This document shows, one piece after another, positions 1,627 through 50,463 of a stretch of 64,000 nt of DNA (position 1 is the first letter of the stretch; the number at the start of each line of letters is the position of its first letter). The notes beneath the pieces are model-generated. The model was given only the letters and a program-made list of their open reading frames with translations. It was not told where the DNA came from and made no database searches. The position numbers and the translations under genes are program-made. The stretch is from Myxococcota bacterium (GTDB lineage Bacteria; Myxococcota_A; UBA796; UBA2385), in contig JBIJDH010000003.1 of NCBI GenBank assembly GCA_044344255.1, forward strand, positions 224,001 through 288,000, in the 5' to 3' direction.

Positions 1627-3282
1627 TCACTTTTCGTGAGAGAGCTTCCAGTTCAGGTACAGGCAGGAGACCGCGTCCGGGAGCTGGGGGGGATCGCCGA
1701 AGACCCCCTTCATCTTCTCCGGGTTTCCGTTCAGCAGCGCGAGGCAAGGCACGGCGATGGACTGAGCGAGGGTGTCGGCGGTCTTGTCGAGGACCCAATC
1801 GCCGCGGGCCTCGAACTTGTCGAGCTGAATGGAGATCGCCCCCTCGCCGCTGAGGTCAAAGGCGGCGTCCTTGTCGAGGTAGTCGACCGTACCGAGGTCA
1901 GCGGCCCAGAACTTGGCCACGCGGGCGACGGCGGCGCGACCGCGACCGGCCTCCGGCACGTAGTCTGCGGACTTGCCAAGCTGATCGCGCACCATCGCGA
2001 AGCTCTTGTTCATCTCCTTTCGGTCGTCGGAGCCCTCGAGGTAGACACACTGGATCTTGCCGTTGGAGAGGCTCTCGAAGTTGCTCTCTACCTGTCCCTC
2101 CGGTCGGGCCCGTCCGGCCAGGTCAGCCGGGGTCCAGAGCAGCTTCTCGCGCTCTTCGGGGGCCTCGAGGGTGGAGGCGGGGCCGCGATGCTGGGCGTCG
2201 GGGACGGCGGTCATGCCGAGGTGGAGCGACTGCCGGTAGGTCATGCGGAGCGGGCCGCGGCCGCAGACGTCGACGCCGTCGGAGTCCGTAAAGGCCTCGA
2301 AGTCGGTCGACTGCAGATCGCGCCGGACGGGTAGCCAGGTCAACAGCACCTGCATGTCGCCGTCGAAGGTCTCCTCCTTTTGGACCCGGTCGCGCCACTC
2401 GGTGAAGGTGCGCTGGCGCTGGTCGCGGCCGTTCAAGAGCCACTCGTACTCTTTCTCCGCCGACAAGATTACCTTGACCTTCTTGCGGACGAGGTTTCGG
2501 AGCTCTTCGTCCTCCTTGAGCACGGCGAGCAGCGTCCCAGAATTGGTGACCTGGGCGGCGAGCTCCGAGAAGTCGAGCTCGGTGCTGTCCTTGGAGAGGG
2601 CGGCGTCGAGGTTCTTCCGGCCGCTCTCACACTCCTGTAGCCGCGTGGACTGGGAGGAGAGCAGCTTGCGGGAGCTGCAGCCCTGGCAGGAGAAGACCCC
2701 GGCGAAGAGCCAGCCGCCGAGCAGGGTCATGCCCAGGATGATGTTTCGGGGCTGATAGATGGCGCCCGACCGCACGAAGGTGACGGCCCGCTGGGCGATC
2801 TGGGCCGGGCCGAGCACGAGCAGGCGCGTCCAGGCCTGGCGCTTCACCTCCTGCCCCATCTTGTCGGCGGTGAGCCGATTTCGCCCTTGGCCGCTGCCCT
2901 TGACCGCCTTGCGTTGCTCGATCACCGCTGGCGGCAGGACGTCGAGCTCCACGATGAAGCGCGGGCCGTCCGGGGTGACCAGCGAGAAGCCATCCCCAGG
3001 GCGGACCGCGGTGGAGGTGGTGAGCTGGGTGGGGCGGCGCTCCCCCTGCTTCCACAAGAAGATCGTGGCGGTGCGGTCCGCCGGCGCCAGGATGAGGTTG
3101 GCCGAGCCTTGGCGGATCAGGCGGACGTGCTCGCCGATCACGCCCAGCGCTTCGTTGAGGACGATGTGGCAGCGATCGGCGTTGGAGCCGAGCCGAACCT
3201 CGAGCCCCTCGAAGGGGCCGAAGCGGGTGCCGCCGAATTCTGGCGTCAGCCTCAAGTAGACTGCGAGCTCTTCACCGGCCAT
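1627..3282 (-). CDS. FHA-like + TM + probably inactive SLT-like periplasmic protein
   Basis: N-terminal FHA-like fold (VRLGSN...EH...VRPGDGFSL), one TM (IILGMTLLGGWLFAGVF), C-terminal region aligns by eye with the SLT protein at 44239-45876. Confidence 0.65.
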   Translation of the reverse strand: MAGEELAVYLRLTPEFGGTRFGPFEGLEVRLGSNADRCHIVLNEALGVIGEHVRLIRQGSANLILAPADRTATIFLWKQGERRPTQLTTSTAVRPGDGFSLVTPDGPRFIVELDVLPPAVIEQRKAVKGSGQGRNRLTADKMGQEVKRQAWTRLLVLGPAQIAQRAVTFVRSGAIYQPRNIILGMTLLGGWLFAGVFSCQGCSSRKLLSSQSTRLQECESGRKNLDAALSKDSTELDFSELAAQVTNSGTLLAVLKEDEELRNLVRKKVKVILSAEKEYEWLLNGRDQRQRTFTEWRDRVQKEETFDGDMQVLLTWLPVRRDLQSTDFEAFTDSDGVDVCGRGPLRMTYRQSLHLGMTAVPDAQHRGPASTLEAPEEREKLLWTPADLAGRARPEGQVESNFESLSNGKIQCVYLEGSDDRKEMNKSFAMVRDQLGKSADYVPEAGRGRAAVARVAKFWAADLGTVDYLDKDAAFDLSGEGAISIQLDKFEARGDWVLDKTADTLAQSIAVPCLALLNGNPEKMKGVFGDPPQLPDAVSCLYLNWKLSHEK

Positions 3283-3353
3283 GCGCGCCGCTCCCCGGGG
3301 CGATGGTAACCGACGGCGGTCGACGTTGGGGTGAGCGACCTTGGGGAGGGCGG

Positions 3354-3417: not shown

Positions 3418-4437
3418 GTGAACATCTTCCTGGTCCCCTACACGTGGATGCGCCACCTCTCGATGGCCTTCTGGTGCGCCGCGGCCGGCCTCTTCGCCTG
3501 GTGGGCGGTGCTGACGCTCGTCGTGGTCGGCCCGCAGGTCTCGCTTGCCTTCGACTGGCCGCCCGGGGCCGACGGCCCGTTGCTCGTGGGCACCATCGCC
3601 GCCTTCGTCGCCGGGGCGAGCGTGCTCGGCGAGGGGAACCTGCGGAGGCAGCCGCTGCTCGGGCGTATCTTCCGGGTCGCGCTGGCCGTGCTGATCACCG
3701 AGCTCATCGCCCAGGTCTGGTACCAACTCTGGCACCTCATCGTGCCCGCCCTCCTGTTCAGCAGCCCGGCCCGCGCCGAGGACGCCGGTGACTCCTCGCT
3801 CGTCAGCCTGACCTACCGGCTCGGCGCCTTCGCGATGGCCGGCGCGGGCACCGGGATGGGGCCGCTGATCGTGCGTAAGGGCGCCGGGTGGATCGCCCAC
3901 CTCACCGGGGGCATGGCGGCCGGGCTGGGCGGGGCGTTGGTCTGGCACCTGCTTGGTTACAGCAACTTGAACACCGATCTCTACCTCCCCGGCGCGGCGC
4001 TGGGCCTCGTCTGGGGCTTCCTGTTCGGGCTCCTCTCTTGGGGGATCCCCGACGAGCTGTACGCTGGCTGGCTGCGGGTGTTGAGCCCGGGTCGGTACGG
4101 GCGACGTATCCCCATCGACGCGCCAGCCGGTGGCCCGAAGGAGCGCTTCATCGGTCACTTTCCGAGGGGGCTTGACCTCTTCCTCCCCGTCGAGAACGGC
4201 GTCTTGGAGCTCCACCTCTCCATCGCCGTCGACAAGCAGCAGCGCTACGCCGCCCGCGGGTTGACCCTCTCCCCCACGATCGTGCGGCGCTTCCTCGAGC
4301 GCATCGACCTCCGTTACGATCCACGCCGGCCCGCTCCCCTGGAGACTCCGCTCAGCAGCGGTGACCGCATCCAGCTCGGCACCGGGGCGAACAGCGCCGA
4401 GCTCGAGTTCATCCTCCTGCCTCGCGAAGAGAGCTGA
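3418..4437 (+). CDS. Polytopic membrane protein with C-terminal FHA-like domain
   Basis: About 7 hydrophobic segments, then GWLRVL..G..GRRIPID...RFIGH...LELHLSI...LSSGDRIQLG. Confidence 0.7.
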   Translation: MNIFLVPYTWMRHLSMAFWCAAAGLFAWWAVLTLVVVGPQVSLAFDWPPGADGPLLVGTIAAFVAGASVLGEGNLRRQPLLGRIFRVALAVLITELIAQVWYQLWHLIVPALLFSSPARAEDAGDSSLVSLTYRLGAFAMAGAGTGMGPLIVRKGAGWIAHLTGGMAAGLGGALVWHLLGYSNLNTDLYLPGAALGLVWGFLFGLLSWGIPDELYAGWLRVLSPGRYGRRIPIDAPAGGPKERFIGHFPRGLDLFLPVENGVLELHLSIAVDKQQRYAARGLTLSPTIVRRFLERIDLRYDPRRPAPLETPLSSGDRIQLGTGANSAELEFILLPREES

Positions 4438-4440: not shown

Positions 4441-5901
4441 TTGACCGACCTCCGGCTGGCCCGCTTCGTCTCCCGGTGCCTGGTCGCGGCGGCGATGCTG
4501 GTCGGCGCTGGGGGATGCGCCGACAACTTGACCCCCATCCCCGGCACCACCACCCGCGTGGGTCGGCCGGTGCAGGCGGAGGGGCGGGAGCTCGGGCTCA
4601 AGATCTTCACCACGATGGACGACTGCAAGAGCTGGAGGATCGCGCCGGAGGACGTCCCATCCTGCCTCCCGCATGTCGATCGTTCGAGCGGGGAGGTGCG
4701 GCTCGGCTTTGCCTTCCTACGAAAGGAGACGGAGAGCGTCTACGCGATGCCCGAAGCGGAGGAGTACCTCCAGATCACGCACCAGGGTACCGCGGTCCAG
4801 GATGACGAGGGTGGTAAGATTGTGGAGGTGATCGGGCATGATCCGGAGGCCGTGCGGCGCCTCTACGTGCTGGTCATCGACGGTTCCTCCTCCATGTGGG
4901 AGGACAACCGGATGCAGAAGATCAAGTCGGCCTTGCGTCGCCAGGACGTGGTGGATTCGTTCTTTCCACAAGACGTCAAGTCCGCCGTGGTCCTCTTTCA
5001 GTTCACCGACGGTGATCCGAGGCCGGTCGGGGGCCAGCTCACCATCTTGCAGAACCGGAAACAATTCGGCGCCGCCGTCGAGCAGCTCCAGGTGCTGTCC
5101 GGCTACACGCACCTCTACGACGCCGTGGCCTTCGCGTCCGGCGCGCTCTTGAAGGACCCCTCGATCGCTGAGCTCCTCGACCGCGAGGAGATGGGCGTGA
5201 CCGTCATCGCGCTCACCGACGGGTTCAACAACGAGAAGCGGGACGACCAGTGTGCGACGAACGCTGATCGGATCAGCCGGCTGTTGAAGGGGATGCTCCA
5301 GCAGCGGCAGGACAAGCAGGACCTCCGGACTCGGCCGACGATCTACACGGTGGGCCTCGGCAAGCCGCTCCGCCCGGGCTTTCACCTCGACGGTGACGTC
5401 GGCACGGAGGTCAAGCCCATCCAGCTCTGCGGCAAGCGCTTCGCCTACATGACCATCGACGGAAACCTGGAGCGGTATGGCATCGACAACGCCAGCCTCG
5501 CTATCATCGCCGATGCAGGCGGGGGTACGAGCTACGTCAAGGAGACCAAGGACGGGCTGGCCGAGGCCTTCCGCGCGGCGGCGCCGATGCGCTACCGCTG
5601 GTTCGAGCTCCGCTACCGAACCGATCCCTTCTACCTCCGCCGCAAATTCAAGACGGGTATCAAGCTGACGAGCTTCGCCACCGCGGAGGCCTCGGTCGAG
5701 CTCTTTCCGAGCGCCTGGCTGGACGGACCTCCCGGGGTGGAGGGGGAGGACGGCTGGACGAAGAGCCAGTCCTACCTCCACACTACCGTGGTGGTGATGC
5801 CCGTTCTGGGGCTCCTCGTCGCGCTCTCCTATGTCGGGGCGGTGGTCTTCAACACGCGGCGCGTGCTCTTCGGCCGCACTCGTCCCGGTCGTACGCGTTA
5901 G
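4441..5901 (+). CDS. Exported VWA-domain protein with C-terminal TM anchor
   Basis: MIDAS DGSSS, T(HLYDAV), LTDG, IYTVGLG; N-terminal signal or marginal lipobox (AGGC); C-terminal TM followed by basic tail. Confidence 0.85.
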   Translation: MTDLRLARFVSRCLVAAAMLVGAGGCADNLTPIPGTTTRVGRPVQAEGRELGLKIFTTMDDCKSWRIAPEDVPSCLPHVDRSSGEVRLGFAFLRKETESVYAMPEAEEYLQITHQGTAVQDDEGGKIVEVIGHDPEAVRRLYVLVIDGSSSMWEDNRMQKIKSALRRQDVVDSFFPQDVKSAVVLFQFTDGDPRPVGGQLTILQNRKQFGAAVEQLQVLSGYTHLYDAVAFASGALLKDPSIAELLDREEMGVTVIALTDGFNNEKRDDQCATNADRISRLLKGMLQQRQDKQDLRTRPTIYTVGLGKPLRPGFHLDGDVGTEVKPIQLCGKRFAYMTIDGNLERYGIDNASLAIIADAGGGTSYVKETKDGLAEAFRAAAPMRYRWFELRYRTDPFYLRRKFKTGIKLTSFATAEASVELFPSAWLDGPPGVEGEDGWTKSQSYLHTTVVVMPVLGLLVALSYVGAVVFNTRRVLFGRTRPGRTR

Positions 5902-5919: not shown

Positions 5920-8187
5920 GTGGCCCGGTTCATCGGACAATATGAGGTCGTCTCAGAGCTCGGATCCGGGCACTTTGGGGCCGTGTATCTGGCAGCCGGC
6001 GAGGTCCCCGGCCGTGGGGGGCAGCCCGGTCGGCGGCGGCTCGTCGCGATCAAGAAGCTCAAGGACTCCGCGGATCGGGAGGCGCTGGCGCTGCTCGTTC
6101 AGGAGTTCGCGCTCCTCGATCAGGTCAAACACCGCAGCGTCGTGAGGGTCTTTGAGTACCTGCAGGACGAGAACGCGGTGGTCATGGAGTACGTCCACGG
6201 CGTCACCCTCAAGCGGGTGACCGAGGAGCTCGACCGCGCCCGGGAGCAGGTCTTCACGGAGGCCGCCGTCGAGATCGGCTGCGAGATCGCAGACGCGCTC
6301 TTTCAGGCCTACACCACGCCAGGCGACAACGGAGAGCCGCTGCAGCTGGTCCACCGAGACCTCAAGCCTGCGAACCTGATGCTCACGCCGCAGGGGGAGG
6401 TCAAGATCCTCGACTGGGGGCTCGCCCGAGTCGACAACGCGGACTTTCGGAGAGAGTCGCGGGACCGCATCAAGGGCACCCTCCTTTACATGGCCCCCGA
6501 GCAGGCGAGGGGGAAAGGTGTCGATCACCGAAGCGACCTCTTTGCGCTCGGCCTCGTGCTGTATGAGCTGCTGCTCAACAAGACCGCCTACCAGGTGCCC
6601 GACAAGGTGGCCGATCCCTACGCCGCTGTCGTCAAGGCCATCGAGGCGGGGGACGTCGCCGGGCCCTGCAAGGAGCTGGAGGCGAGGCTCCCGGCCATCG
6701 GGCCGGTGATCACGCGGGCCCTTCAACCTCGGCAGGCCGATCGGTATCGGACGGGCCAGGAGCTGATGGTCGATCTCCGGCGTCAGCTTTATCGGGATCG
6801 CGGCGCCTATCTCCAAGAATTTTGCGAGTTCTTCTTTGGGACCATCTGCGACATCGGGGAGCCTCCCTCGATCGAGGGGTTGGGCCTCGTGGGTCGCGCG
6901 CCGGCCAAGGCGCGAGGCGGCCGCGCCTCCATCGAGGAGCGCCTGAAGGAGTCCATGGTGCGCGAGACACGAGCGCGGGACACCGTCCAGAGCTCCGCGC
7001 CGGTGCCCTTGAACTCGCCCGACGCGGCGAGGCGGGCCCCCGTGGCGCCGCCGCTCCGCGGGAACCCTGTCCCTGAGCCTGGAGGAGCCATGTCCGGCGC
7101 CCGTAAGCCTCCCCCGCCGCCGGTCGGTGGCGCCGCCTCCCGGGCTGGCCCGCCGCCGCCCCCCGCGCCGAGCCGGGCGCCGGCCCCCCCTCCGCCTCCC
7201 CGCGGCGCGGCGCCTCCGCCGGCTCCTCCCCGCCCGACTCCGCCGAAGCCGGTGGGTCAACGACGCCCCGACGAGACCGGCATGCTGGAGATGGTGCCGT
7301 TGAACCAGGACGACGATGAGGTAGAAGCCTCGGGAGACCCGAGCGCCACGTCCTTCTTCGCGATCCCGGCGCCCAAGGCGGGGCGGAGCTCGGCCAGCTC
7401 CGCGTCTGGAGGCGGCGGGATGGCCCCCTCGCCGATGTCCATGGCCTCGATGGCGCCGCCGCCCCCGCCGCCGCGGATGGGCATGGGGCAGCCCCCCGCC
7501 GCCGCGATGCCGGGGATGGGCGGCCCGATGGGGGTGAGCAGCATGCCTCCTCCCCCGCCGCCGCCGATGATCCAGGGCCCTGTGGCCGGATACGGTGCCC
7601 CTCCGCAAGGAGGCACCCCGTTCCATGTGCAGGGCGGAGTGGCGCCCCCGGCAGACGCGGGCGCGCGGGTCCAGTCGAACCGCGTCTATGCCATCCTCTT
7701 CTCGGTCTTCCTCCTGGTGTGCGCGGCGGTCTTCTTCGCCGTCTGGTTCAGCCCGTTGCTCACCAAGGCCGCCCCCGAGAAGGAGGAGACCAAGGTGGTC
7801 GCTACTGCGGCGGAGCCCGCGAAGAAGAAGCAGGACACGGGGCTCGCCCCGCCCCCGCCGCCGGAGCCTGTGAAGAGGCCTTCGGGTGGCGGCGGGACGA
7901 AGAAGGAGACCACGCCCAAGGTTCAGTCGAGCGCGCCGCCCGCGCGGGGCGGGACGCTCACGGTGACCATGACGGATGGGTCACCGGTGACGGGCTTCGA
8001 GGTCAACTGCCCGAGCGGCTTCCGCGAGCGCGGCACCATTCGAGGGACCAGCGGGTCGGTCGCGAACGTGCCGAATGAGCCGTGCACGATCTTCTTTAAG
8101 GGCGTCGGCTCCGCGAAGTGGGGGCCCGTGACCGGCGGTCGGTCCGTGAAGTGTCGCATCGAGGGGAGCACCGGCGTCTGCAGCTGA
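5920..8187 (+). CDS. Membrane Hanks-type Ser/Thr protein kinase
   Basis: GSGHFG, VAIK, HRDLKPAN, DWG (for DFG), YMAPE, SDLFALG; Pro/Met-rich linker, one TM, small Cys-containing extracytoplasmic domain. Confidence 0.93.
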   Translation: MARFIGQYEVVSELGSGHFGAVYLAAGEVPGRGGQPGRRRLVAIKKLKDSADREALALLVQEFALLDQVKHRSVVRVFEYLQDENAVVMEYVHGVTLKRVTEELDRAREQVFTEAAVEIGCEIADALFQAYTTPGDNGEPLQLVHRDLKPANLMLTPQGEVKILDWGLARVDNADFRRESRDRIKGTLLYMAPEQARGKGVDHRSDLFALGLVLYELLLNKTAYQVPDKVADPYAAVVKAIEAGDVAGPCKELEARLPAIGPVITRALQPRQADRYRTGQELMVDLRRQLYRDRGAYLQEFCEFFFGTICDIGEPPSIEGLGLVGRAPAKARGGRASIEERLKESMVRETRARDTVQSSAPVPLNSPDAARRAPVAPPLRGNPVPEPGGAMSGARKPPPPPVGGAASRAGPPPPPAPSRAPAPPPPPRGAAPPPAPPRPTPPKPVGQRRPDETGMLEMVPLNQDDDEVEASGDPSATSFFAIPAPKAGRSSASSASGGGGMAPSPMSMASMAPPPPPPRMGMGQPPAAAMPGMGGPMGVSSMPPPPPPPMIQGPVAGYGAPPQGGTPFHVQGGVAPPADAGARVQSNRVYAILFSVFLLVCAAVFFAVWFSPLLTKAAPEKEETKVVATAAEPAKKKQDTGLAPPPPPEPVKRPSGGGGTKKETTPKVQSSAPPARGGTLTVTMTDGSPVTGFEVNCPSGFRERGTIRGTSGSVANVPNEPCTIFFKGVGSAKWGPVTGGRSVKCRIEGSTGVCS

Positions 8188-13493: not shown

Positions 13494-14201
13494 TTAGACG
13501 ATCGTGCCTTTCTTGTCGGCGTGCCGGTCCAGCTGCGATTGAGAGTGATCGTCCATCGAGCCGAGCACACGCCGAGCGAGGTCGTCCACCACGTCGAGGT
13601 GGCTGTAACCTTGGGCGATCATCGCTCGGTAGCCGCGGACCGGATCGCTCTTCGACGCGATGGTCTCCGGCTTTCCGGCCGCGCCGCCGGCCGCGCCGCC
13701 CACGCTGCTGCCGCCCTTCTCGGAGGAATTGTGCGGGTCGCCGTGGCCGGCGCCTGCATGGGGCTGGTAGCCGCCTTCGTAACCGCCCTCCATCCGGTGG
13801 AAGACCATGCGCTCCACCGCCCGCGCCGCGACCTCTTCAGCGTCTCGGAAATTTTCCCCGCCTCCACCGCCTCCGCCGTCGCCGTGCTGGGCGTGGAAGG
13901 CCTCGTGGGCGTACAGCGCCTGATCTTCAGGGTTGGAAGGATTGAAGTCGTCGGCGACGATGATCTGCCGATCGAGGGTCATCGCGCGAGCGCCGACCGA
14001 CTTCAGGGCGCGCTGCGCGAGCTCACCCCGGTAGACCGAGCCGCCACCGGGCATCGACTGCCGTTGGAGGGCGCCCGACTCCAGCCGGCTCGCCACCCGA
14101 CCGACCGTGGAGGAGCCGACCACGCTCCGACCGTCACCCGCCCCTTCTCGGTCTCTCGCGACCGATCTCGCGGCCGCCTGCCCACCTGAACGTCCAGCCA
14201 T
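13494..14201 (-). CDS. DUF4157 (eCIS core domain) protein
   Basis: GARAMTLDRQI...ALYAHEAFHAQH (HExxH)...EEVAARAVE; 18 nt upstream of the ATPase. Confidence 0.82.
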   Translation of the reverse strand: MAGRSGGQAAARSVARDREGAGDGRSVVGSSTVGRVASRLESGALQRQSMPGGGSVYRGELAQRALKSVGARAMTLDRQIIVADDFNPSNPEDQALYAHEAFHAQHGDGGGGGGGENFRDAEEVAARAVERMVFHRMEGGYEGGYQPHAGAGHGDPHNSSEKGGSSVGGAAGGAAGKPETIASKSDPVRGYRAMIAQGYSHLDVVDDLARRVLGSMDDHSQSQLDRHADKKGTIV

Positions 14202-19455: not shown

Positions 19456-19531
19456 GCCCCACGGACTGTACCCCCGCCCGGCGCATTTCCACCGTGCATC
19501 GGGCATCCACAAGTAAGAAAGGAACAACAAC

Positions 19532-28731: not shown

Positions 28732-28742
28732 GCGGGAGAGGG

Positions 28743-41431: not shown

Positions 41432-44242
41432 ATGGAGAGCATCGGCGGGCTGGTCGCGACGGGCCGAAAGTTACGGGGGCCGGGCTCCGATCTGGTCGAG
41501 CTCGACTCTCCGAAGGGCCTCAAGCACACCGCGGTCCAGTTTCATCCGGAGTACCGGTCGCACAACGCGATCAACGACGCCCTGTCCGTGGTGCGCGGCT
41601 TCCTCGAGTCGCCGATGGTCACGGGCCTCGTGGAGCTGGTCCGGGACGACCCGAACGAGGGCGCCTTCATCTACCCGACCGGCCAGGTTTGGAGCGTGGC
41701 CGAGGTGATCCGCACGATGGCGGACCTCGGGGAGCCCGCCGGGGTGCGCGCCGGCCTGGAGCTGATGTTCGCAGCGGGGCGTATCCTCGTGGAAGCGGCG
41801 GACACCGGGGCGAATCAAGGGGTGTACTCCCACGGGGGCCTCACCCCCTGGCGCTGCATGCTGCGGCGGAACGGGGAGGTGCTGATCATCGGTCACGCGC
41901 TCCCACAAGTGGAGATCCTGCTCTTTCACGAAGATCCGAGCCGGATCCCGCGGGAGGACTCCTTTCGTTACTGCCCCCCCGAGCGCATGGAGTCGGCCGC
42001 CGAGGATGTCTCGAGCGACCTCTTCGGCCTCACGCTCGTCGCCTTCGAGCTCATGACCGGCAAGCCGGTCTATGACGGGCTCGTCAACGACATCCGCCAG
42101 CAGGCGGCGCGGGGGGAGGGCTCGCGGCGCCTGTACCGCTTCCGGGAGATCCTGCCGCAGCGGGTCCGCGACCTGCTCTCGACCGCGATGAAGCCGGCCA
42201 CTTCAGACCGCTTCTCGAGCGGCGAGGAGTTCCTCACCGAGGTGCGCGCGGTGCTCTCGAGCGCGGACGCGACGGGCCCTTCGCTGATCGACCTGATGGC
42301 CCACATCGGCCAGCAGAACGTGCGCACGGGCACCGCGGTGGAGGCCAGCAAGACCACGATGACCTCCCGGGAGGAGCTCCAGCGCCTCGTCGGGGCGGAG
42401 GACGACGAGGTCGCCGAGGCCTCGGGGCGGGGCGCGCGCGAGGCGTGGAGCCCTGCGCCGGCGCGAGGGGGAGATCAACCCCAGCGTCGCAGCCCCCGCA
42501 GGGCCGGCGAGAGCGGCGACGGGCCCGCGGCGCCGGTCGCCGCGCCGCCGGCCGCCGCACCGCCGCCCGCCGCACCGCCGCCGGATCTGAGAGCCCTCAC
42601 GGAGTCCCAGTCCCGCTGGTCGAAGCCGAACCGCGGCAACGAGGCACCGGCTCGCGCGCCGGAGCCGCCTCCGCGAGCCCCGGAGCCGGCCGGGCCGCGC
42701 CCCGCAGCGCCGCCCCGCACCCCGGAGCCGCCACCCCGGATGACCGAGCCGCCGCGAGCCCAGGAGCCGCCTCGCATCCCGGAGGCGCCGCGGGCTGTGG
42801 AGCCGCCGCGGACCTTCGAGCCAGCGCACTCGATCGGCGGCGGCCCCCGTGCGGGTCGGCTCCCCCCCCGAGCGCGGCCCGAAGGGGAGCCGGAGCCCGT
42901 TCGACGCGGTGGGGTGGATATCGCCGAGCTCTTGAGCCGGGTGAATCAGGGGGCCGCCGCTCTGGTGGCGCCGGTCGCCCCGGCGCGCCCCCCGCCGGAT
43001 CCGGCGATCGACGCCGCGCGGCCCGAGGGCCCCGCGCGTCGTGTTCCCCTGCGGGAGCGGCTGAACCAGAGCGCCTCGCTCCCGCCGCCCGTGTCCGCCG
43101 CGCCGCCGCCGCCGCCGCCTTCGCCTTCTCCGCCGTCTCCCACGGTCCAGACCTCCCCCGCATCGGCGGTCGCCCCGACCTCGTCGATGACCGCAGGGCC
43201 GGGCCTCACGGAGGCGGGGCGGCCACGCTTCCAGTCCGGCCGTGCCCGGGTCCCGGAGCCGACTGCGCCAGCGGGGGCGTCTCCCTCGGAGGTGCCGCCC
43301 GCAGACGCGCCGCCCGTAGACGCGGCGCCGGTGGTCTCGCCGCCTGCGGTCTCGGCGCCGGTGGTCGCGCCGGTGCTTCAGCCGCCCGAACCGGTCCCCC
43401 TCGCAGTGCAGCCGGCCCCGGCCATCCCGCCGGCCTCCTTCGCCGCGCAGGGCATCTCTCCGGTGATCGTGCCGCCGGCGCCGGTGAGCGCGCCCCCCGC
43501 GGCGCCCTTCGTCGCCGGCCTGCCGGTGAGCGCCGGCCCGCCGGCGGAGCTCCCTCTCCCCGTGGCGCCCCCTTTGCCCGCGCCGCCCCCTCCGGTGGTC
43601 GCGCCGCCGACTCCACCGAGCCCTGCGCCGGCCGCTCCGCCGTCGGAGTCGCCTGGAGCGGCGGCGAGCGGCGCCTCCGCGGTGCACGTGATGGCGGCGG
43701 CCTCGGTGAGCGGCTCGGGTGTGGCCGGCGCGGCCCGAGCGGCGCCGGCGGGGAGCGGTGCGTTCACCGTTCGCCGCGCCGACGGTCGTGTCGCTCGGAG
43801 CCGCCTACCCTCAGCGGCGAGCTCGGCCGAGGGGGTCTCGATGCTGGTCGGCACGGTCTTCCCCGTCCGCCTCGACCTCGCCGGTCGCCTCGCGGGTTGG
43901 TACCGCATGGAGCAAGGAGGGGTGCAGATCCCCGCCGACCGACGCATGTTCGAGCTCGATCCGGAGAGGGAGATCACCTTTCGGTTTGTGCCAAATGACA
44001 CGATCATCGCCGAGATCGAGGTGCGGGGAGCCGACCTGCCCCACCGCTTCAAGGCGCCGGTGGGCACGGCGGTGCTCGTCACCTCGATGGTCGACCACCT
44101 CATCACGTGGCTCGAGCTCGGCCCGGGGGAGTGGGGCCTCCTCCTCAACGGGCGCTCCCTCGAGCCCCACGGCATCCTCCAGGACGCGCTCGAGCCGGGC
44201 GCCCCCGTCCGCCTGTTGCTGAGCCGGGTGAACGCCCGATGA
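41432..44242 (+). CDS. Pseudokinase + Pro-rich linker + two C-terminal ubiquitin-like (YukD-type) domains
   Basis: Kinase C-lobe kept (YCPPE, SDLFGL...FELMTG, R of subdomain XI) but HGGLTPWR for HRDLKPxN, IGH for DFG, no VAIK lysine; GGAG before ATG 41432. Confidence 0.7.
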   Translation: MESIGGLVATGRKLRGPGSDLVELDSPKGLKHTAVQFHPEYRSHNAINDALSVVRGFLESPMVTGLVELVRDDPNEGAFIYPTGQVWSVAEVIRTMADLGEPAGVRAGLELMFAAGRILVEAADTGANQGVYSHGGLTPWRCMLRRNGEVLIIGHALPQVEILLFHEDPSRIPREDSFRYCPPERMESAAEDVSSDLFGLTLVAFELMTGKPVYDGLVNDIRQQAARGEGSRRLYRFREILPQRVRDLLSTAMKPATSDRFSSGEEFLTEVRAVLSSADATGPSLIDLMAHIGQQNVRTGTAVEASKTTMTSREELQRLVGAEDDEVAEASGRGAREAWSPAPARGGDQPQRRSPRRAGESGDGPAAPVAAPPAAAPPPAAPPPDLRALTESQSRWSKPNRGNEAPARAPEPPPRAPEPAGPRPAAPPRTPEPPPRMTEPPRAQEPPRIPEAPRAVEPPRTFEPAHSIGGGPRAGRLPPRARPEGEPEPVRRGGVDIAELLSRVNQGAAALVAPVAPARPPPDPAIDAARPEGPARRVPLRERLNQSASLPPPVSAAPPPPPPSPSPPSPTVQTSPASAVAPTSSMTAGPGLTEAGRPRFQSGRARVPEPTAPAGASPSEVPPADAPPVDAAPVVSPPAVSAPVVAPVLQPPEPVPLAVQPAPAIPPASFAAQGISPVIVPPAPVSAPPAAPFVAGLPVSAGPPAELPLPVAPPLPAPPPPVVAPPTPPSPAPAAPPSESPGAAASGASAVHVMAAASVSGSGVAGAARAAPAGSGAFTVRRADGRVARSRLPSAASSAEGVSMLVGTVFPVRLDLAGRLAGWYRMEQGGVQIPADRRMFELDPEREITFRFVPNDTIIAEIEVRGADLPHRFKAPVGTAVLVTSMVDHLITWLELGPGEWGLLLNGRSLEPHGILQDALEPGAPVRLLLSRVNAR

Positions 44243-45876
44243 GCACGGTGGAACGGTGGGATGTCCTGCTCCGCTTCGTCGCGGGGCCGCTCTCCCTGCA
44301 GGGGGACATGGTGCTGCAGGGCCCCGTGGTCCGGATGGGGGCCAACCCTGGCCCCGGCGGCCTTAAGCTCGAGGGATACCGTGGCCTGGACGATCGACAG
44401 GCGGTGATCACGGCCTACGACGGGACCGCGGTCTCGATCGCGCCGGTGGGGGTCAATCAGGTCCGCGTCGCCCCGCACGAGAACCAGAACTGGGCGGAGA
44501 TCCAAGCGATCCGCGGCCCGGTTTACCTGAGCTCGGGGGACGCCTTCCACCTCGGCCCACCCGGTCGCGGGGTCACGGCGGTCTTCATCAAGGCGCAGCG
44601 CCTGGGTGTCTGGGAGCAGAATCGCATCCTCTCGGAGTCGGCCCAGGTCGATCCGGGCCTCCAGCCCTCGAACGTCAAGGAGCTCTCGAGCCGCCGGGGC
44701 ATCCCCATCTGGGTGATCCCCGCCTTCATCGTGACGAGCATGTTCACCGCGGTCGGGCTCGTGGCCGTGGTCGCCGTGCGCAACATCAACCTCGACCCTG
44801 ACCCCTTGGGCCCCGTGATCGAGGGGGAGGAGGTGCACAAGTTCGTCAACATCTCGTCGCAGAAGGTGGATCCGAGCCTCAAGGAGGGCCTGCGCGGCCC
44901 CTTCGAAGACTTCGTGATGAAGCCGAATGAGCAGGTCTCGGGCATCAAGGGCCTGGCCAAGGACGAGAAGCAGTGGGACCAGACCTTCTACCGCTATGTT
45001 GAGGCGGCGGTCTCCGCCCACGCGGCAGGATGGCGTTTCTGGAGCCGCCTGGAGGCCATCAAGGACCAGTACGCCTACGTGGTCACCGAGCTCCGAAAGG
45101 CCAAGCTGCCCGAGGTCTTCGCGGCCATCCCCTACCAGGAGTCCTCGTACCGCCCCGACGCCCGCTCACCCGTCTGTGCGGTGGGGTACTGGCAGTTCAT
45201 GCCAGAGGTCGCGTTTCGGGTGGGGATCCCGGTCAAGGACTGCCACATGTCGGGCAGCCAGGGCCTCTGGACCCCCACCGAGCCGGTGCCAGTGCGCGGC
45301 GTGCTCAAGAACGCGGTCTATGTCGAACAGGATCCGCTCCGCTGTCGCATCTCGCGCTGCGACGTCGATGAGCGGACGAACCTCGAGGTCTCCACCGCCG
45401 GCGCGATCGTCGCGCTGTCCGAGGCCTGGGAAGACGATCAGTTCCGGGCCTCCGGCTCGGCCGTTCAGATCACCATCCTCACGCACAACTCCGGCTACGA
45501 CAACGCGAAGTACTACGAAGACAAGCAGCCCAACATCATCAACATCAAGCCTGCTTACAACCGCTACCTGAAGGACAAGAAGGTCGAGCGGGCGGTGGAC
45601 TTCTACGGACAGAACATCACCTGTACCGGCACCGAGGCCGGGCAGATCATGGAGTCCAACAACCGTTGTGGCGGCGTGATCGCCAACCAATCCCAACATT
45701 ATGCGTACTCGATCGTCGCTCAGCACATCCTCGCCGTCTGTTACTATGCGAAGAATCACGGCGATATGTCAGCCTTCAAGCAGTGGAACCGGGACTATGT
45801 CATCGGTGACGGCTACTGTGACAAGCTGAAGGGTGTGCCGAGCCTGGACGAGATCAAGGCGCGCGGGGGCTCCTGA
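44239..45876 (+). CDS. FHA-like + TM + SLT (MltD-like) lytic transglycosylase
   Basis: IPYQESSY.P.ARS...AVGYWQFMP, VDERT.LEVST.GA, HNSG; ATGA coupling to the pseudokinase. Confidence 0.85.
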   Translation: MSTVERWDVLLRFVAGPLSLQGDMVLQGPVVRMGANPGPGGLKLEGYRGLDDRQAVITAYDGTAVSIAPVGVNQVRVAPHENQNWAEIQAIRGPVYLSSGDAFHLGPPGRGVTAVFIKAQRLGVWEQNRILSESAQVDPGLQPSNVKELSSRRGIPIWVIPAFIVTSMFTAVGLVAVVAVRNINLDPDPLGPVIEGEEVHKFVNISSQKVDPSLKEGLRGPFEDFVMKPNEQVSGIKGLAKDEKQWDQTFYRYVEAAVSAHAAGWRFWSRLEAIKDQYAYVVTELRKAKLPEVFAAIPYQESSYRPDARSPVCAVGYWQFMPEVAFRVGIPVKDCHMSGSQGLWTPTEPVPVRGVLKNAVYVEQDPLRCRISRCDVDERTNLEVSTAGAIVALSEAWEDDQFRASGSAVQITILTHNSGYDNAKYYEDKQPNIINIKPAYNRYLKDKKVERAVDFYGQNITCTGTEAGQIMESNNRCGGVIANQSQHYAYSIVAQHILAVCYYAKNHGDMSAFKQWNRDYVIGDGYCDKLKGVPSLDEIKARGGS

Positions 45877-45881: not shown

Positions 45882-46607
45882 ATGCGCACCATCATGTCCC
45901 TCGCCGTGCTCGTCATTGTGCTGCTCCTCACGAGCTACCTCGTGTATTTGGAGAACGCGCACAACAAGATCGCACCCACCGAGGCGAAGGTGCGCCACCT
46001 CGCCGAGAAGTCCGATCCTCAGTTCGACATGCTCTTTCTGTCCACCAAGCGAGAGGAGAACCTGACGCGGATGGGGCTCACCGGCGCGCTGCTCAAAGAC
46101 ACGCTCCGGCAGGCCCAGCGGAATGAAGACGAGCTCGCAGGGAAGCTGACCCGTCTCCTCAACGAGTCCGCCGAGCCCGACAAGCTGGTGGCCGACATCT
46201 GCGGCCGGACCAACGATCGTCGGCCCCGTTACGGCGCGATCGCCTGGCTGGTGGTCGACGAGAAGGGCGAACGACGGCCCATTGACCTCGCCCGGATCAC
46301 CAAGCTCGAACGTCAAGACTGGGCCGTGGGCTCGTCAGTCGATGAGATCTACAAGCACCTCGAGCTCGCCGACGGCCCCCATCCGGACGCGACCTTGATG
46401 GGCGTGGCGGGCATCCTGCTCAAGCAGGAGGAGAAGGTGCTCCAGGACTACAAGCCGTGGGGTTCGGGCCTCGTGATCGGTCAGTGGAGCTGGGAGGACG
46501 TCATCAAGACCTACCCCGGCATCGCCGCCTGGAGCCGCGACTACTTCGCCCTGATGCACGTCACCCTGGAGCTGGCCAACGCGGAGGAGGGGGTCTGTAA
46601 TGGCTGA
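45882..46607 (+). CDS. Single-TM/secreted hypothetical protein
   Basis: N-terminal hydrophobic helix; 5 nt after the SLT stop. Confidence 0.7.
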   Translation: MRTIMSLAVLVIVLLLTSYLVYLENAHNKIAPTEAKVRHLAEKSDPQFDMLFLSTKREENLTRMGLTGALLKDTLRQAQRNEDELAGKLTRLLNESAEPDKLVADICGRTNDRRPRYGAIAWLVVDEKGERRPIDLARITKLERQDWAVGSSVDEIYKHLELADGPHPDATLMGVAGILLKQEEKVLQDYKPWGSGLVIGQWSWEDVIKTYPGIAAWSRDYFALMHVTLELANAEEGVCNG

Positions 46608-46834: not shown

Positions 46835-49000
46835 ATGTCCGAGCCTAGACGGCGGTTTCGTTTCCTGAAGGAGCTCTCGGAGGGCGCCTTCGGGAAGGTG
46901 TACCTCGCCGAGATGATCACCGGCGACGCCTTCAAGAGCGTCGTGGCCATCAAGCTCCTCCACGGGAAGTGGGGTGGCCACGAGGAGATCGTGCGTCGGT
47001 CCCGCGATGAGGCGCGCGTGCTCGGCCTGCTCCACCACCGAAACATCATCCGGGTGGACGACCTCACCTCCCTCAATGGCCAATGCGCCATCGTGATGGA
47101 GTACCTCGACGGCGTCGACATCAAGAACCTGATCAACTACTCGCGGGAGCTGGGGGTCGGCTTCCCCCGAAAGGTCTCCTTCGAGATCGGCGCTCAGATC
47201 GCGGCCGCCCTCGACGCCGCCTACAACCACCGCCCGCTCGGCGGCGGTGACCCCCTGCAGGTCATCCACCGCGACATCAAGCCCTCCAACGTGATGATCA
47301 CGACGGCGGGTGAGGTGAAGGTGCTCGACTTCGGCACCGCCCAGGCCCGCTTCGACGAGCGAGAGGCCCACACGCAGGCCCTGGCCTTCGGCTCTGCCGC
47401 CTACATGGCCCCAGAGCGCTTGCTCGGGGATCCGGACGCCCCGAGCGGGGACGTCTTCTCGCTCGGCATCACCCTCTTCGAGATCATTGCCTTCGATCCC
47501 TTCGGGAAGATCCACATCCGCCCTGAGAAGTTCGACGCTCGCCTCGAACGCCGGTTGGGTGAGATCGACCTCTCGGACCTCAGCGAAGGCCAGGGCGAGC
47601 AGGTGAGGGGGCTGCTGCGGCAGTTCCTCGCCTACGAGGCCTCGGAGCGCCCGAACGCGAGCCAGTGTGTGGAGCTGCTCGAGTCTTTCGCCGATGAGCT
47701 CAGCGATGGGAACCTGCGTCGTTTTTGCCGGGAGGTCGTCAAGCCTTGCCGCGAGGCGATGGCGCCGGAGCAGGATCCGAACGACCCCCTCACCGGGAGC
47801 ACCCTCTTCGAGGACAGCTCCGGGCTCCGCAGCATGGAGGGGCCGTCGGCCACTTGGGTAGACGGCGGCGAGCCTCCTTCCGCTGAGGCTGGCGGCGTCA
47901 ACAGCGCGTCCCGCAGCGCATCCCGCGCGATTCGCGCGCCCGGGGAGGGCGTGAGCCCGCGGCCCACGCCGGCGCCCCCGGTTGACTCCACCGTCGAGCT
48001 GCCGAAGGTGCAGCATTCGCCATCGGCGGACTCGGCGCCCCGCCTCGATCCGCGGGTCATGGTCTCCGGCTCCCGCCCCGCCGGCCGACCGCAGGTGGTG
48101 AGCCCGACCATCATCCCGCCGCCGCCGGAGGCCGACGCCAACTTCTTCGCGGCGCCGACGATGCTCGGCTTCACGGGCGACGAAGATCCGAGCGAGGGCA
48201 TCGAGATCCGCCCGATCGCCTCGGGGCCCTCCGCCTCGTCTGCTGTCCCATCCGAGCCGCGGCGCGCCCCCACGCCGCCTCCGCCGCTCGACCGGGGCAC
48301 CCCGGCGGACCCCTCCGCTGAGCCGGACACGGGCCGAGTGGCCGCCGTCGCCCCCTCCAGCCACGTCGCCAACCAGCCGCTCCCCCAGCCCACCCTCAGG
48401 CCGGTCCCCTTGTCCGGTCCGGTGGTCAACCAGGCGCCGGTCCGCCCCACGGCGCCCATTCCCCAACGACCGGCGGCCGTGCGGCCCGAGGTCGCCCGCC
48501 CCGATCCCCGAAATGCTGATGCTCCGCCTCGCTCTGGCGGTGGCTTCATCAAGCTGCTCGTGGCCGCCCTCGCCCTGCTGCTGGTGGTGGGCGCTGGCGG
48601 GGCGGTCGTCGTGCTCTCCGGCGTGCTCACGCGGGACGGCTCCTCTCTGCCCGATGGAGAGGGTGTGCCGGGCGACGCCTCGAAGGGTGGTCGAAAGGTG
48701 GAGATCGCCACGCTCGGCCCCTCAGTCGGCGTCGCCACCCTGGTCATCCTGCCGCCGGGCAAGGCGGAGGTGGATGTCCGGGCCATGGGCGGCTCGATGA
48801 AAGAAGAGTGGGACGGCTCTGGACGGCTGGAGCTGCTCGGCCTCGAGCCGGGCACCTATCAGACCAAGATCGCCCCCCACTCGGGCTCCAGCCGCCGCGC
48901 GACCTTCGATGTAAAGGGCGGTGAGACCTGCACCTACACCTTCGACACCCGGAAGGACGGTGAGGAATGGGAGAAGTCCGGTTGCGCGCCCCTGCCTTGA
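46835..49000 (+). CDS. Membrane Hanks-type Ser/Thr protein kinase
   Basis: EGAFGKV, VAIK, HRDIKPSN, DFG, YMAPE, DVFSLG; Pro-rich linker, TM, small beta-rich (PEGA-like) extracytoplasmic domain. Confidence 0.94.
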   Translation: MSEPRRRFRFLKELSEGAFGKVYLAEMITGDAFKSVVAIKLLHGKWGGHEEIVRRSRDEARVLGLLHHRNIIRVDDLTSLNGQCAIVMEYLDGVDIKNLINYSRELGVGFPRKVSFEIGAQIAAALDAAYNHRPLGGGDPLQVIHRDIKPSNVMITTAGEVKVLDFGTAQARFDEREAHTQALAFGSAAYMAPERLLGDPDAPSGDVFSLGITLFEIIAFDPFGKIHIRPEKFDARLERRLGEIDLSDLSEGQGEQVRGLLRQFLAYEASERPNASQCVELLESFADELSDGNLRRFCREVVKPCREAMAPEQDPNDPLTGSTLFEDSSGLRSMEGPSATWVDGGEPPSAEAGGVNSASRSASRAIRAPGEGVSPRPTPAPPVDSTVELPKVQHSPSADSAPRLDPRVMVSGSRPAGRPQVVSPTIIPPPPEADANFFAAPTMLGFTGDEDPSEGIEIRPIASGPSASSAVPSEPRRAPTPPPPLDRGTPADPSAEPDTGRVAAVAPSSHVANQPLPQPTLRPVPLSGPVVNQAPVRPTAPIPQRPAAVRPEVARPDPRNADAPPRSGGGFIKLLVAALALLLVVGAGGAVVVLSGVLTRDGSSLPDGEGVPGDASKGGRKVEIATLGPSVGVATLVILPPGKAEVDVRAMGGSMKEEWDGSGRLELLGLEPGTYQTKIAPHSGSSRRATFDVKGGETCTYTFDTRKDGEEWEKSGCAPLP

Positions 49001-50463
49001 GGGTGCTTCGCGGTCTCCTGCTCGGCGTGGGGCTGCTCCTCTCGGGGCTGGCCTCTGCCTCGTCCTTCGACGATCAGGTCGGGGCGGCGCGGGCGGCGAT
49101 CGCCAAGAAGGACACGAAGGCTGCAGACAAGGCCCTCGATCTCGCGGAGGCGGCGGCGCCGGACTCCACGACGCTGCTCGGCCCGCGCAGCCTCGCGCAG
49201 TTTTGGTACTACCGGGGCCTCGTCGCTCAGCTCGGGAAGCAGAAGAGCAGCGTGGTGATGGACGCTTGGCGTCAGGCCTTGCTCGTGGACAACACGCTCC
49301 CTTGGGAGCAGGGCCTCATCCCGAACGAGGATGATCCGTGGAGCCTCTTCGAGGCGCTGCGGGCGGAGGTCCGAGGGCGACCGACCGTCAAGGTGGGTGT
49401 CCCGGAGAAGACGGGGAGGACGAAGATCTACATCGACGGTGTGCGTCGGGTCGCGGGCGATGAGGTGCTCTCGGGCACCCACCTCGGCCAGGTGATCTGC
49501 GATGACGGCTCGTTTCACGGCGTCTGGACCGACCTCGGCAAGGAGGTCAAGTGGTTCAAGCTCTGCCCCGGCGGGGTGGACACGACGGTGGTGGTCGCCG
49601 AGTCCGCTGGCTCCGACGACTGGGATGAGATGGGGCCGGCCTTCGGCGAGGATGGCGCGGACGTCGGCGGAGCCGAGGTCGCCGCCGTCGTGCCGCCCGT
49701 CGAGAAGAAGGTCGCTGAGAAGCCGCCCGTCGAGAAGAAGGTCGCTGAGAAGCCGCCCGTCGAGAAGAGGGTCGCTGAGAAGCCGCCCGTCGAGAAGAAG
49801 GTCGCTGAGAAGCCGCCCGTCGAGAAGAAGGTCGCTGTGGTGCCGCCGGTCGAGGACAAGGCCGCCTCGGAGGGCCATCCGGCGACCAAGGGCGCGACCA
49901 AGAAGGGCACCGCCGGTCCGGGCACCGTCGAGGCGGGAGCAGCCAGCTCGTCGGGGGGGGAGAAGTCGGTCGCCGCGAAGGCCGCTGGCGAGAAGAAGTC
50001 CAGCGGCAAGGGCGGCAAGGGCGGCAAGGGTGGCAAGGGTGGCAAGGGTGGTAAGGGCGGCAAGGGTGGAGGTGCCAAGAGCGGAGCGGGTGAGGGGAAG
50101 GGCGCGACCGCCGCGAAGGACCCGAAGGACAAGGGCGGCTGGAGCCCGGTGGCCACCGGGCTGGTGGCCGGGGGCGGCGGCCTCCTGCTGACGGGGACCG
50201 CCCTCAATTTCGCCTGGGTGAACCCTGCCTGGGCCGAGCTTGACGCCGCCCGCTCCGATCCAGGTACGGTCACGTCCGCCGAAGCCGACGCCCTCTCGCA
50301 GACCTTCAACACCCGTCGGATGGTCACGCTGGGCGTGGGCGGCGCCGGGGCGGCGATCGCGCTCGGCGGCGTGCTGGTCGTAGCCATCGACGTCGAGCGC
50401 TCCCCCTGGATGCTCCGACCCTTGGTCGGGCCGGCCTCATTCGGCATCGCGGGCCGCTTCTGA
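48997..50463 (+). CDS. Secreted TPR/PEGA-like protein with Lys-rich repeats and hydrophobic C-terminus
   Basis: Signal peptide ending ASA, helical N-domain, IYIDG..., ends FGIAGRF; TTGA overlap with the kinase stop. Confidence 0.65.
   Translation: MRVLRGLLLGVGLLLSGLASASSFDDQVGAARAAIAKKDTKAADKALDLAEAAAPDSTTLLGPRSLAQFWYYRGLVAQLGKQKSSVVMDAWRQALLVDNTLPWEQGLIPNEDDPWSLFEALRAEVRGRPTVKVGVPEKTGRTKIYIDGVRRVAGDEVLSGTHLGQVICDDGSFHGVWTDLGKEVKWFKLCPGGVDTTVVVAESAGSDDWDEMGPAFGEDGADVGGAEVAAVVPPVEKKVAEKPPVEKKVAEKPPVEKRVAEKPPVEKKVAEKPPVEKKVAVVPPVEDKAASEGHPATKGATKKGTAGPGTVEAGAASSSGGEKSVAAKAAGEKKSSGKGGKGGKGGKGGKGGKGGKGGGAKSGAGEGKGATAAKDPKDKGGWSPVATGLVAGGGGLLLTGTALNFAWVNPAWAELDAARSDPGTVTSAEADALSQTFNTRRMVTLGVGGAGAAIALGGVLVVAIDVERSPWMLRPLVGPASFGIAGRF
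49692..49837 (+). repeat. 30-bp coding tandem repeat, about 5 copies (PPVEKKVAEK)
   Basis: gccgcccgtcgagaagaaggtcgctgagaa at 49692, 49722, 49752, 49782 and 49812 (last partial), one substitution. Confidence 0.95.
50005..50067 (+). repeat. 9-bp coding repeat, (GKG)x7
   Basis: ggYaagggY repeated seven times. Confidence 0.9.

Follow-up and report, generated by a model that had tools for sequence, protein, structure and literature searches.

An eCIS-type machine between two groups of envelope genes

Here, we analysed a window of 64,000 nucleotides from a Myxococcota bacterium (assembly GCA_044344255.1, contig JBIJDH010000003.1, positions 224,001 to 288,000), which contains a contractile injection system (CIS) of the extracellular type (eCIS) and, on both sides of it, genes for membrane, signalling and ubiquitin-like (Ubl) proteins. 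The genome (G000; the window corresponds to C52:224001-288000) comprises 8.2 Mb and is 95% complete. Genes are named by their first position in the window, and genomes (G), contigs (C) and families (f) by our own labels. A previous, sequence-only reading had placed the CIS between two paralogous modules and proposed that these could anchor or trigger a cell-attached machine. The location of the core between two modules was confirmed, with a full eCIS-type set detected by Pfam and NCBIfam among the window genes at 11.4-34.7 kb.

On the minus strand, this set includes an AAA ATPase of the Afp15/Pvc15 type (11382..13475; Pfam WHD and AAA) and a protein with the eCIS core domain DUF4157 (13494..14201; PF13699). 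The plus strand encodes a Pvc16-type cap or terminator (16841..17641; PF14065), then sheath 1, tube 1, a conserved 121-residue protein, which we take to be tail-chaperone-like, and a DUF6760 protein (17650..20495), sheath 2 and tube 2 (20571..22462), CIS_tube-LysM, baseplate hub and gp25 proteins (27003..29138), baseplate protein J (1163 residues, with a large insertion) together with a Tail_P2_I/TssG-like protein (29208..33802), and a protein in the fibre position, composed of a CIS13-like shoulder and a short conserved helical domain (33799..34734; NF053767). A 1509-residue low-complexity protein with conserved ends (22496..27025, plus strand) may be the tape measure; it had no family match in the Pfam, NCBIfam and PHROGs scans. 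Its open reading frame (ORF) is rich in Ala, Arg, Ser and Pro, has an atypical codon pattern and is conserved at the ends only, and homologous ORFs of about 1580-1820 residues were present in G088 and G004. In sister genomes G127 and G121, three tandem tube genes follow sheath 1, and no long low-complexity gene lies between tube 2 and the LysM gene. Two further minus-strand genes are interspersed in the core, argE for acetylornithine deacetylase (14345..15523; TIGR01892), a passenger outside the system that served as internal control, and a gene for a conserved helical protein that is syntenic in related loci (15495..16244).

The hub has no spike domain, and a scan of the window and of G000 located the spike OB-fold and PAAR genes outside the locus, as a tandem spike pair on C64 and a PAAR gene on C18. 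Because homologues of the C64 pair are situated directly upstream of the sheath gene in four sister-family genomes (G127, G121, G147 and G136), this pair belongs to the main machine; a PAAR homologue adjoins the spikes in G007 and G057. Thus, the spike and PAAR parts of an eCIS are supplied in trans. The spikes are 57-79% conserved outside family f4, in which the spike is one longer, diverged gene. The orphan spike pair (G000:C64:73850-77092) is followed by a conserved helix-turn-helix-like gene, a candidate regulator, that also accompanies the spikes in G005, G007, G057 and G059.

The fibre-position protein 33799 (311 residues) showed 78% mean column identity over 55 sequences and contains no variable receptor-binding part. 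A tail fibre with a variable C-terminus was not found at the locus; no search for a separate, unlinked fibre gene was made. None of the 55 members of the 33799 family matched TssK in Pfam, only the CIS13 shoulder being recognized, and weak sub-threshold WXG100 matches to seven of the 55 homologues were read as helical-bundle noise. ESM Atlas yielded only unnamed clusters for this protein.

At the outer left, gene 1627 (1627..3282, minus strand; 551 residues) encodes a protein for which a structural model (pLDDT 70) and fold search predict an N-terminal forkhead-associated (FHA) fold (Z up to 10.7), a transmembrane (TM) segment and a C-terminus matching the lytic transglycosylase MltD (8rhe; Z 9.7, root mean square deviation 3.7, 181 aligned residues). 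In the right flank, gene 44239 (44239..45876, plus strand) encodes an FHA-like domain, a TM segment and a lytic transglycosylase (SLT) domain with an intact catalytic Glu motif, consisting of an invariant Glu-Ser (E301-S302) and a G-x-W-Q motif; its best PDB match was also MltD 8rhe (E 7e-7). Since the helix that bears the catalytic Glu in 44239 does not end in a conserved Glu in 1627, the latter protein is probably a catalytically inactive structural twin. The architecture was all that the two proteins had in common (BLASTP E 0.38, hhalign E 0.43). The secreted proteins 8337 and 48967 of the two modules are also unrelated by sequence, so that the proposed paralogy of the modules was not borne out. 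The claim of an FHA-TM-SLT protein on each side held for TM-SLT in 44239 and for both folds in the 1627 model, but the FHA domain of 44239 had no direct support; like that of 3418, it had no Pfam match (hhalign E 0.43 and 0.19, respectively).

The remaining left-flank genes lie on the plus strand. They encode a multi-pass membrane protein with a putative C-terminal FHA-like domain (3418..4437; 339 residues), an exported VWA protein with a C-terminal TM segment (4441..5901), which Pfam assigned as anticipated, a membrane Ser/Thr kinase with VAIK and HRD motifs and a TM segment (5920..8187), an outer-membrane protein (8337..10325) and a syntenic exported protein whose family was not assigned (10413..11309). 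The outer-membrane protein is modelled (pLDDT 60) as a periplasmic helical region and a C-terminal 8-stranded barrel matching NspA (Z 14.4), with an invariant terminal Phe; ESM Atlas gave only leads under 0.9. As a channel for the tube it was ruled out, because the modelled OmpA-type barrel of eight strands would be too narrow. For 10413, one 30% homologue was present in the CIS-negative genome G106, and C73 carries a paralogue. A small MYXO-CTERM protein with DTG repeats is encoded immediately beyond the left module (1139-1609).

The core is followed by gene 34741 (34741..35721, plus strand), which encodes a fusion of a YukD-type Ubl domain (E 1.6e-6), TM helices and a C4HC3 finger of the RING/PHD type. 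The ligands of the finger were invariant in 55 sequences except C318, which was nearly invariant. Further downstream, a cytoplasmic pseudokinase (41432..44242, plus strand) has a long Pro-rich linker and one or more conserved C-terminal domains, possibly Ubl-like. It has no VAIK, HRD or DFG match and no predicted TM segment. It was rejected as a YukC/EssB protein, being without a TM segment and without such a protein among its best 60 PDB matches or in Pfam. Of the two Ubl domains proposed earlier, that of 34741 was confirmed, but that of the pseudokinase was weak, as one of 17 members matched YukD (E 0.029). Extra paralogues of the pseudokinase domain were seen in family f4 (G047, G003, G079 and G089), some of them in ORFs of 1,300-3,600 residues.

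Other right-flank genes include 45882 (45882..46607, plus strand), which is syntenic with 44239 and encodes an N-terminally anchored exported protein with an invariant Cys pair, and two conserved minus-strand genes (38570..41298; one helical-repeat-like, one encoding an acidic 536-residue protein) that in several families separate the CIS from the right module. A second membrane kinase and the exported protein 48967 complete the module (46835..50463, plus strand; paralogue on C65). The AsmA-like gene counted as part of the arrangement in the sequence-only reading is indeed present (35753..38557, plus strand), but it was absent from the loci of 21 related genomes and from 41 loci with at least 9 kb of downstream sequence, and is a local insertion outside the system.

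Distribution and joint loss of the CIS and its flanks

Of 121 genomes from the window's order, 111 gave a match to baseplate protein J, nearly always to one full-length copy (45-75% identity). Three genomes without J (G037, G089 and G093) contain sheath 1 at 72-81% and were read as assembly gaps. In the phylogenetic tree of Tail_P2_I, based on 34 proteins from loci already fetched, seven label changes were needed for eight families, which is the minimum (mean after shuffling, 21.8), which indicates that the CIS has descended vertically. Among the matches listed for the 34741 family, 80 named loci all came from metagenome-assembled genomes (MAGs); Myxococcota and Deltaproteobacteria were among their titles, and most were aquatic by name.

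Gene order around J was scored in 21 genomes, in which contig ends or window limits cut many loci; J had the left module next to it in 11 genomes and the right one in 10. Parts of the modules are located elsewhere in G113, G116 and family f7. A 33799 homologue lies upstream of 34741 in 64 of 77 named loci with enough flank, and the pseudokinase within about 10 kb downstream in 17 of 41. G029 has the left and right modules side by side (C3:127000-142000), with the CIS core about 100 kb distant on that contig.

The loss of these genes was examined in 69 of 120 order genomes, comprising all 11 without a close J and 58 better assemblies. Six of them, belonging to four genera in two families (G008, G027, G083, G041, G079 and G106; 78-97% complete), jointly lack J, the 19975 protein, 1627, 3418, 8337, 34741 and 44239. 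Both 44239 and 1627 were found in 62 of the 69, the remaining misses being G053, which evolves fast, and G091, which is 59% complete. Within a subset of 42 genomes, 8337 was present in all 26 CIS-positive and none of the six CIS-negative order genomes; 3418 and the pseudokinase were present in 25 and 23 of the 26, respectively. None of the six CIS-negative genomes has an orthologue-level match to 41432; G079 gave only pseudokinase-like matches of 28-31% in very long ORFs. Likewise, 4441 and 45882 were found in none of the five CIS-negative genomes tested, in searches without a positive control. Given this joint absence with the CIS, the families 1627, 3418, 8337, 34741, 44239, 41432, 4441 and 45882 belong to the system. 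Kinase 5920 has syntenic orthologues at 52-70%, and CIS-negative genomes give only generic kinases at 35-40%.

The right-hand kinase behaves differently. Kinase 46835 and a 48967-like gene are kept in CIS-negative G008 and G027, and G079 contains a kinase fragment at a contig end. Hence both modules have a TM kinase with VAIK and HRD motifs, as had been claimed, but the right one is not specific to the system; similarly, the expected pair of secreted proteins with a terminal Phe is reduced to 8337, its supposed counterpart 48967 persisting without the CIS. Independent occurrence of the flanks in relatives had been named beforehand as evidence against a functional connection. The proposal mostly withstood this check. 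Eight families had no orthologue or were not found in CIS-negative genomes, but kinase 46835 and 48967-like genes persist there, and two sister-family genomes described below (G131 and G137) keep part of the set.

One explanation for these patterns would be chance linkage, i.e. the flanks are unrelated neighbours that were kept by gene order and lost in block deletions. It is true that queE, argE and an enoyl-CoA hydratase gene are also syntenic, and that kinase 2, 48967 and AsmA are unrelated to the CIS. On the other hand, argE survives within the lost interval (controls kept in CIS-negative genomes: argE in three of five, queE in two of five, the hydratase in five of five), and the unlinked spike pair is missing in five of the six. 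Although the cluster of family f7 is in pieces, all 14 of its genomes searched for 44239 and 1627 contain both genes and all 16 searched for 34741 contain that gene, and sister families whose J is only about 30% identical have the same partners beside the CIS. Chance linkage is largely refuted by the co-loss and sister-family data, and we regard it as very improbable.

Three CIS-negative genomes have other sheath genes. G053 was considered as a CIS without flanks, which was ruled out by diverged homologues of 1627, 8337, 10413, 33799, the Ubl and 44239 in place; 3418, 4441, 45882 and the pseudokinase were not found in this genome. Its whole cluster (G053:C87:32000-62000) is fast-evolving and reduced and occupies the same position between queE and the hydratase gene.

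Sister families with a predicted ubiquitin-like cascade

Distant homologues of 33799 were identified in families f8 and f10 (E 1e-12; a 201-genome sample of the phylum without cultured Myxococcota, in which only f1-f8 and f10 gave matches). In these two families, the fibre-position gene is followed by genes for an E1 (ThiF), a TM-RING protein, a free YukD-type Ubl and an E2 (UQ_con), with JAB-TM, FHA-TM-SLT, TM-FHA and VWA-TM genes nearby, as assigned by Pfam (ThiF, UQ_con, YukD and JAB). The order E1, TM-RING, Ubl, E2 was found in 16 of 17 E2-positive genomes. Ten have E1 immediately after the 33799 homologue and one has it 7 kb away; in the rest, contig ends or rearrangement obscure the arrangement. 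The E2 motif HPN..C was present in 16 of 16 proteins and the JAB motif in 10 of 11; in the RING of f8, Thr replaces the second Cys. From these domains and motifs, f8 and f10 contain a complete predicted E1-E2-RING-Ubl-JAB conjugation set.

Several comparisons connect these genes with those of the window. The Ubl of f10 is 46% identical to that of 34741 over 57 residues, and the TM part and the finger align too; 34741 is the counterpart, in position and sequence, of the free Ubl and TM-RING genes of the sister families and has its ancestry in this ubiquitin system. Profile comparisons (hhalign) between window-order and sister proteins supported homology of TM-FHA (E 5e-7; for 3418 and the gene beside the VWA-TM gene, 5.4e-7), VWA (E 3e-4; 2.8e-4 for 4441) and FHA-SLT (E 2e-3). 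The E2 was identified in 14 of 15 f8, two of two f10 and one of eight f12 genomes but in none of the 73 searched from the window's order, and the sister E2 found no match in G000 by tblastn and phmmer. The fused 34741 showed the reverse distribution (65 of the 73 window-order genomes vs none of 28 others). Thus, 34741 resembles a Ubl-E3 conjugate made permanent at the gene level, the enzymes having disappeared from this lineage, a direction of change that we infer.

In f8, the Ubl is 92-96% identical (minimum and mean) across genera in 14 genomes vs means of 54-78% for its neighbours, and always ends in Ala; the Ubl of G128 ends in Gly. The FHA-TM-SLT gene was found in 13 of 15 f8 genomes. It tracks the CIS in both groups, since among the f8 genomes it is missing from exactly the two without CIS markers, G131 and G137. 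These two may also carry a stand-alone membrane ubiquitination system. Matches to the Ubl profile (n=45) and to the E2 (n=27) were metagenome-derived or unnamed records only. In f12, one contig (G143:C249, 13 kb) has an E2 with neighbouring JAB- and E1-like genes and no CIS gene.

Possible docking of the machine at the cell envelope

Membrane-bound CIS of eCIS ancestry are already known from Amoebophilus, Aureispira, haloarchaea, Anabaena (the thylakoid tCIS) and Streptomyces, so the mode of action considered here would not be new. The subtype iv type VI secretion systems (T6SS-iv) of Amoebophilus and Aureispira resemble the present system in their eCIS-type tail, their proposed membrane-bound state without TssJLM and conserved membrane genes nearby, and Aureispira is described as using its own trans-envelope complex for predation (10.1101/2024.01.29.577165); the text of that preprint has no occurrence of 'FHA' or 'kinase'. 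A single protein with six TM segments is the candidate anchor of the haloarchaeal T6SS (PMC11566945), and CisA of the Streptomyces CIS is one bitopic protein (PMC12237407). Conserved, co-inherited membrane genes are a feature of the cell-attached CIS and of the system described here, for which attachment is predicted; SLT pairs, RING, Ubl, E1, E2 and JAB are not mentioned in the available portions of the cell-attached CIS descriptions.

Compared with eCIS such as Afp, PVC and AlgoCIS, the sheath, tube, hub, gp25, J, Pvc16, AAA ATPase and DUF4157 are common, whereas order-wide vertical inheritance, unlinked spikes and PAAR, the absence of a variable fibre at the locus and the co-inherited envelope and ubiquitin-like genes are different. 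The canonical T6SS shares control by a Ser/Thr kinase and Fha, a recruited lytic transglycosylase (MltE) and a TssG-like baseplate protein (PMC13584744). It differs in that G000 contains no TssM/IcmF (PF06761, no match; the control in E. coli was positive; TssJ and TssL were not searched), that sheath, cap and ATPase here are of the eCIS type, and that FHA and SLT are fused in a locus-encoded membrane protein. A pseudokinase, FHA and a YukD-type Ubl in a membrane secretion complex form a scaffold logic in common with YukB-YukC-YukD of the type VIIb secretion system (PMC13037476, PMC1779556), although 41432 is without a predicted TM segment or YukC match. No FtsK-type ATPase (YukB/EssC) or WXG100 substrate was matched by Pfam among the window genes. 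YukD is reported not to be conjugated (PMC13037476, PMC1779556), in contrast to the presence of E1, E2, RING and JAB in the sister families. The bacterial Bil, Bub and CBASS Cap2/Cap3 systems contain the same E1, E2 with HPN..C, JAB with HxH..S..D and Ubl, and the TAPI/TAPK pair of phage lambda is a precedent for Ubl and JAB in tail assembly (PMC11601603, PMC1779556). Different from these operons are the membrane RING E3, the membrane JAB, a YukD-type Ubl ending in Ala (f8) or Gly (G128) and the operonic arrangement with a CIS baseplate. In titles and the beginnings of abstracts, from mainly open-access literature, a CIS linked to E1/E2/RING/JAB or to the accessory set is undescribed; work from 2011 on prokaryotic RING proteins lies outside this scope and may describe related operons. 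This suggests that the accessory set and its link to an E1-E2-RING-Ubl-JAB cascade are the new part.

As the most economical explanation, we consider it possible, at somewhat below an even chance, that the locus encodes a housekeeping-like, cell-attached, envelope-docked and vertically inherited contractile injector made from eCIS parts, which works in a T6SS-like manner with its own anchor. Protein 33799 would be a TssK-like adaptor between baseplate and membrane and not a prey-binding fibre; eCIS fibres have been described as carrying diverse C-terminal binding modules, and Tail_P2_I/eBAP3 baseplates as resembling TssG/TssK (PMC12923769). The inner-membrane proteins 34741, 3418 and 44239 and the presumed inactive twin 1627 may form the docking site, at which the active transglycosylase 44239 would open a local hole in the peptidoglycan, and 4441, 45882 and the barrel 8337 could extend this site to the outer membrane as an anchor or contact sensor. 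Kinase 5920 and the pseudokinase might control assembly through the FHA domains. In the sister families, E1, E2 and TM-RING would conjugate the Ubl at the docking site and the membrane JAB protease would remove it; in the window's order, the Ubl is fused to TM-RING and the enzymes are missing. A likely use would be contact-dependent killing of prey or competitors. If true, this would be an independent way of making an eCIS-type tail cell-bound, with named candidate anchor genes, in uncultured aquatic myxobacteria with strong transcription of the tube gene in nature.

Several points weigh against this explanation. The anchor or trigger role of the flanks and their contact with the baseplate are predictions, Pfam detected no resemblance of 33799 to TssK, and a related cluster has been published as a released eCIS (PMC11937823). 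Synteny alone is weak, because the controls argE and enoyl-CoA hydratase were also found in place in 14 and seven of the 21 genomes, respectively, and queE is syntenic as well. Related genomes are not independent, and the six CIS losses may represent only two to four events. In the sister families, G131 (94% complete) and G137 (90% complete) keep E1, TM-RING, Ubl, E2, JAB-TM, TM-FHA and VWA-TM and gave no match to the 19975 protein, the spike or FHA-SLT, so the ubiquitin part may have its own function or outlast the machine. Finally, 8337 and the pseudokinase found no match in six CIS-positive sister genomes.

Retention of ubiquitin, TM-FHA and VWA genes without a CIS in G131 and G137 would suit another explanation, in which the flanks serve for signalling and protein modification at the membrane and regulate expression, assembly or turnover of the CIS, without being a physical anchor. 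Kinase/FHA control of T6SS is regulatory (PMC13584744), and the stronger conservation of the f8 Ubl relative to its neighbours suits a modifier with several partners. Such a module leaves unexplained the co-loss of a periplasmic transglycosylase, its inactive twin and an outer-membrane barrel, as well as the lack of a variable fibre, and we think it unlikely, although the most probable of the alternatives.

A PLTS-like cluster has been reported in seamount Myxococcota MAGs, mostly of class UBA796; its tube gene is highly expressed and in two MAGs ranks above all other genes (PMC11937823). By gene content, it is probably the same family as the CIS of the window, whose own class is probably UBA796; the available text of that report does not mention an accessory module and treats the cluster as released. 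In an ordinary released eCIS, the flanks would be a regulated lysis cassette, with the TM-tethered SLT as an endolysin switched by kinase and FHA and the multi-pass proteins as holins. The core is of the eCIS type (DUF4157, Pvc16 and AAA ATPase), and release of eCIS after lysis has been described (PMC8213781). The earlier remark that lysis genes are missing was right for holins and spanins, no family of which was matched among the 25 proteins scanned in PHROGs, but the SLT domain of 44239 matched an endolysin family (E 7e-8), the sole match of the lysis class. The locus also has no variable receptor-binding fibre for a free particle, and the horizontal spread and patchy distribution described for eCIS (PMC8213781) contrast with the host-following CIS found here. 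If use were suicidal, a top-expressed tube gene would presumably be costly for single planktonic cells. We judge release by lysis improbable.

In public RNA data, the sheath-tube stretch was partly present in 24 runs from 14 studies, four of which hold half or more of it. The comparison used these four and left out runs with smaller shares and bins without cover. All four freshwater runs (four studies) contained near-identical contigs over the genes for sheath 1, tube 1 and 19975, and contig pieces on 8337 were present in two of the four; as the runs were found with the sheath-tube stretch, the contigs indicate presence and not level, and may include DNA carry-over.

The Streptomyces CIS, which depends on the membrane protein CisA and brings about regulated cell death (PMC12237407), offers a further model, namely a cytoplasmic, self-directed CIS that, when the cell is stressed or attacked by phages, is recruited to its membrane to kill the producer, the ubiquitin-like cascade being the sensor; some bacterial E1/E2/Ubl operons are anti-phage (PMC11601603). 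No toxin-immunity pairs were recognized in the locus and the spikes are well conserved outside f4, which would suit this model. A search for shared cargo motifs in G000 matched two proteins only and was dropped. The periplasmic and outer-membrane components 44239, 4441 and 8337 point beyond the inner membrane, and in PADLOC (2023 library, which may lack Bub) the sister E2, Ubl and TM-RING had no match, with E1 and JAB matched only partially at the domain level. Defence systems are usually patchy in distribution, whereas the present system is near-universal in its order. A self-directed machine appears slightly less probable still than release by lysis.

Returning to the envelope-docked injector, a more specific version gives control to the cascade of the sister families. 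Docking or arming would take place under a membrane-bound, eukaryote-like E1, E2, TM-RING, Ubl and TM-JAB cascade at a new trans-envelope complex of FHA, transglycosylase and barrel proteins; in the window's order, the Ubl would have been fused genetically to TM-RING, hard-wiring the conjugate, and the enzymes lost. We put this forward as tentative and less probable than not. If true, the machine would be the weapon with which an abundant aquatic class, uncultured so far, permanently preys on other cells, and it would reveal a non-defence role for bacterial ubiquitination, in which a complete E1-E2-RING-Ubl-JAB set is tied to a secretion machine instead of phage defence, and a testable case of a conjugate fixed by gene fusion; the genes are small enough for in vitro tests.

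Two additional clusters were noticed in these genomes. C83 of G000 contains a second, compact CIS with its own spike (24000-49200), with a 1333-residue gene upstream and large membrane or surface genes downstream, and a sheath cluster of this type (60% identical) is present in G041, the one examined of the three CIS-negative genomes with other sheath genes. In G053, the CIS is followed after about 12 kb by a Tad/Flp pilus cluster (C87:73000-82000; labels read from the translations), whose homologues are located on C83 of G000 around 216-224 kb.

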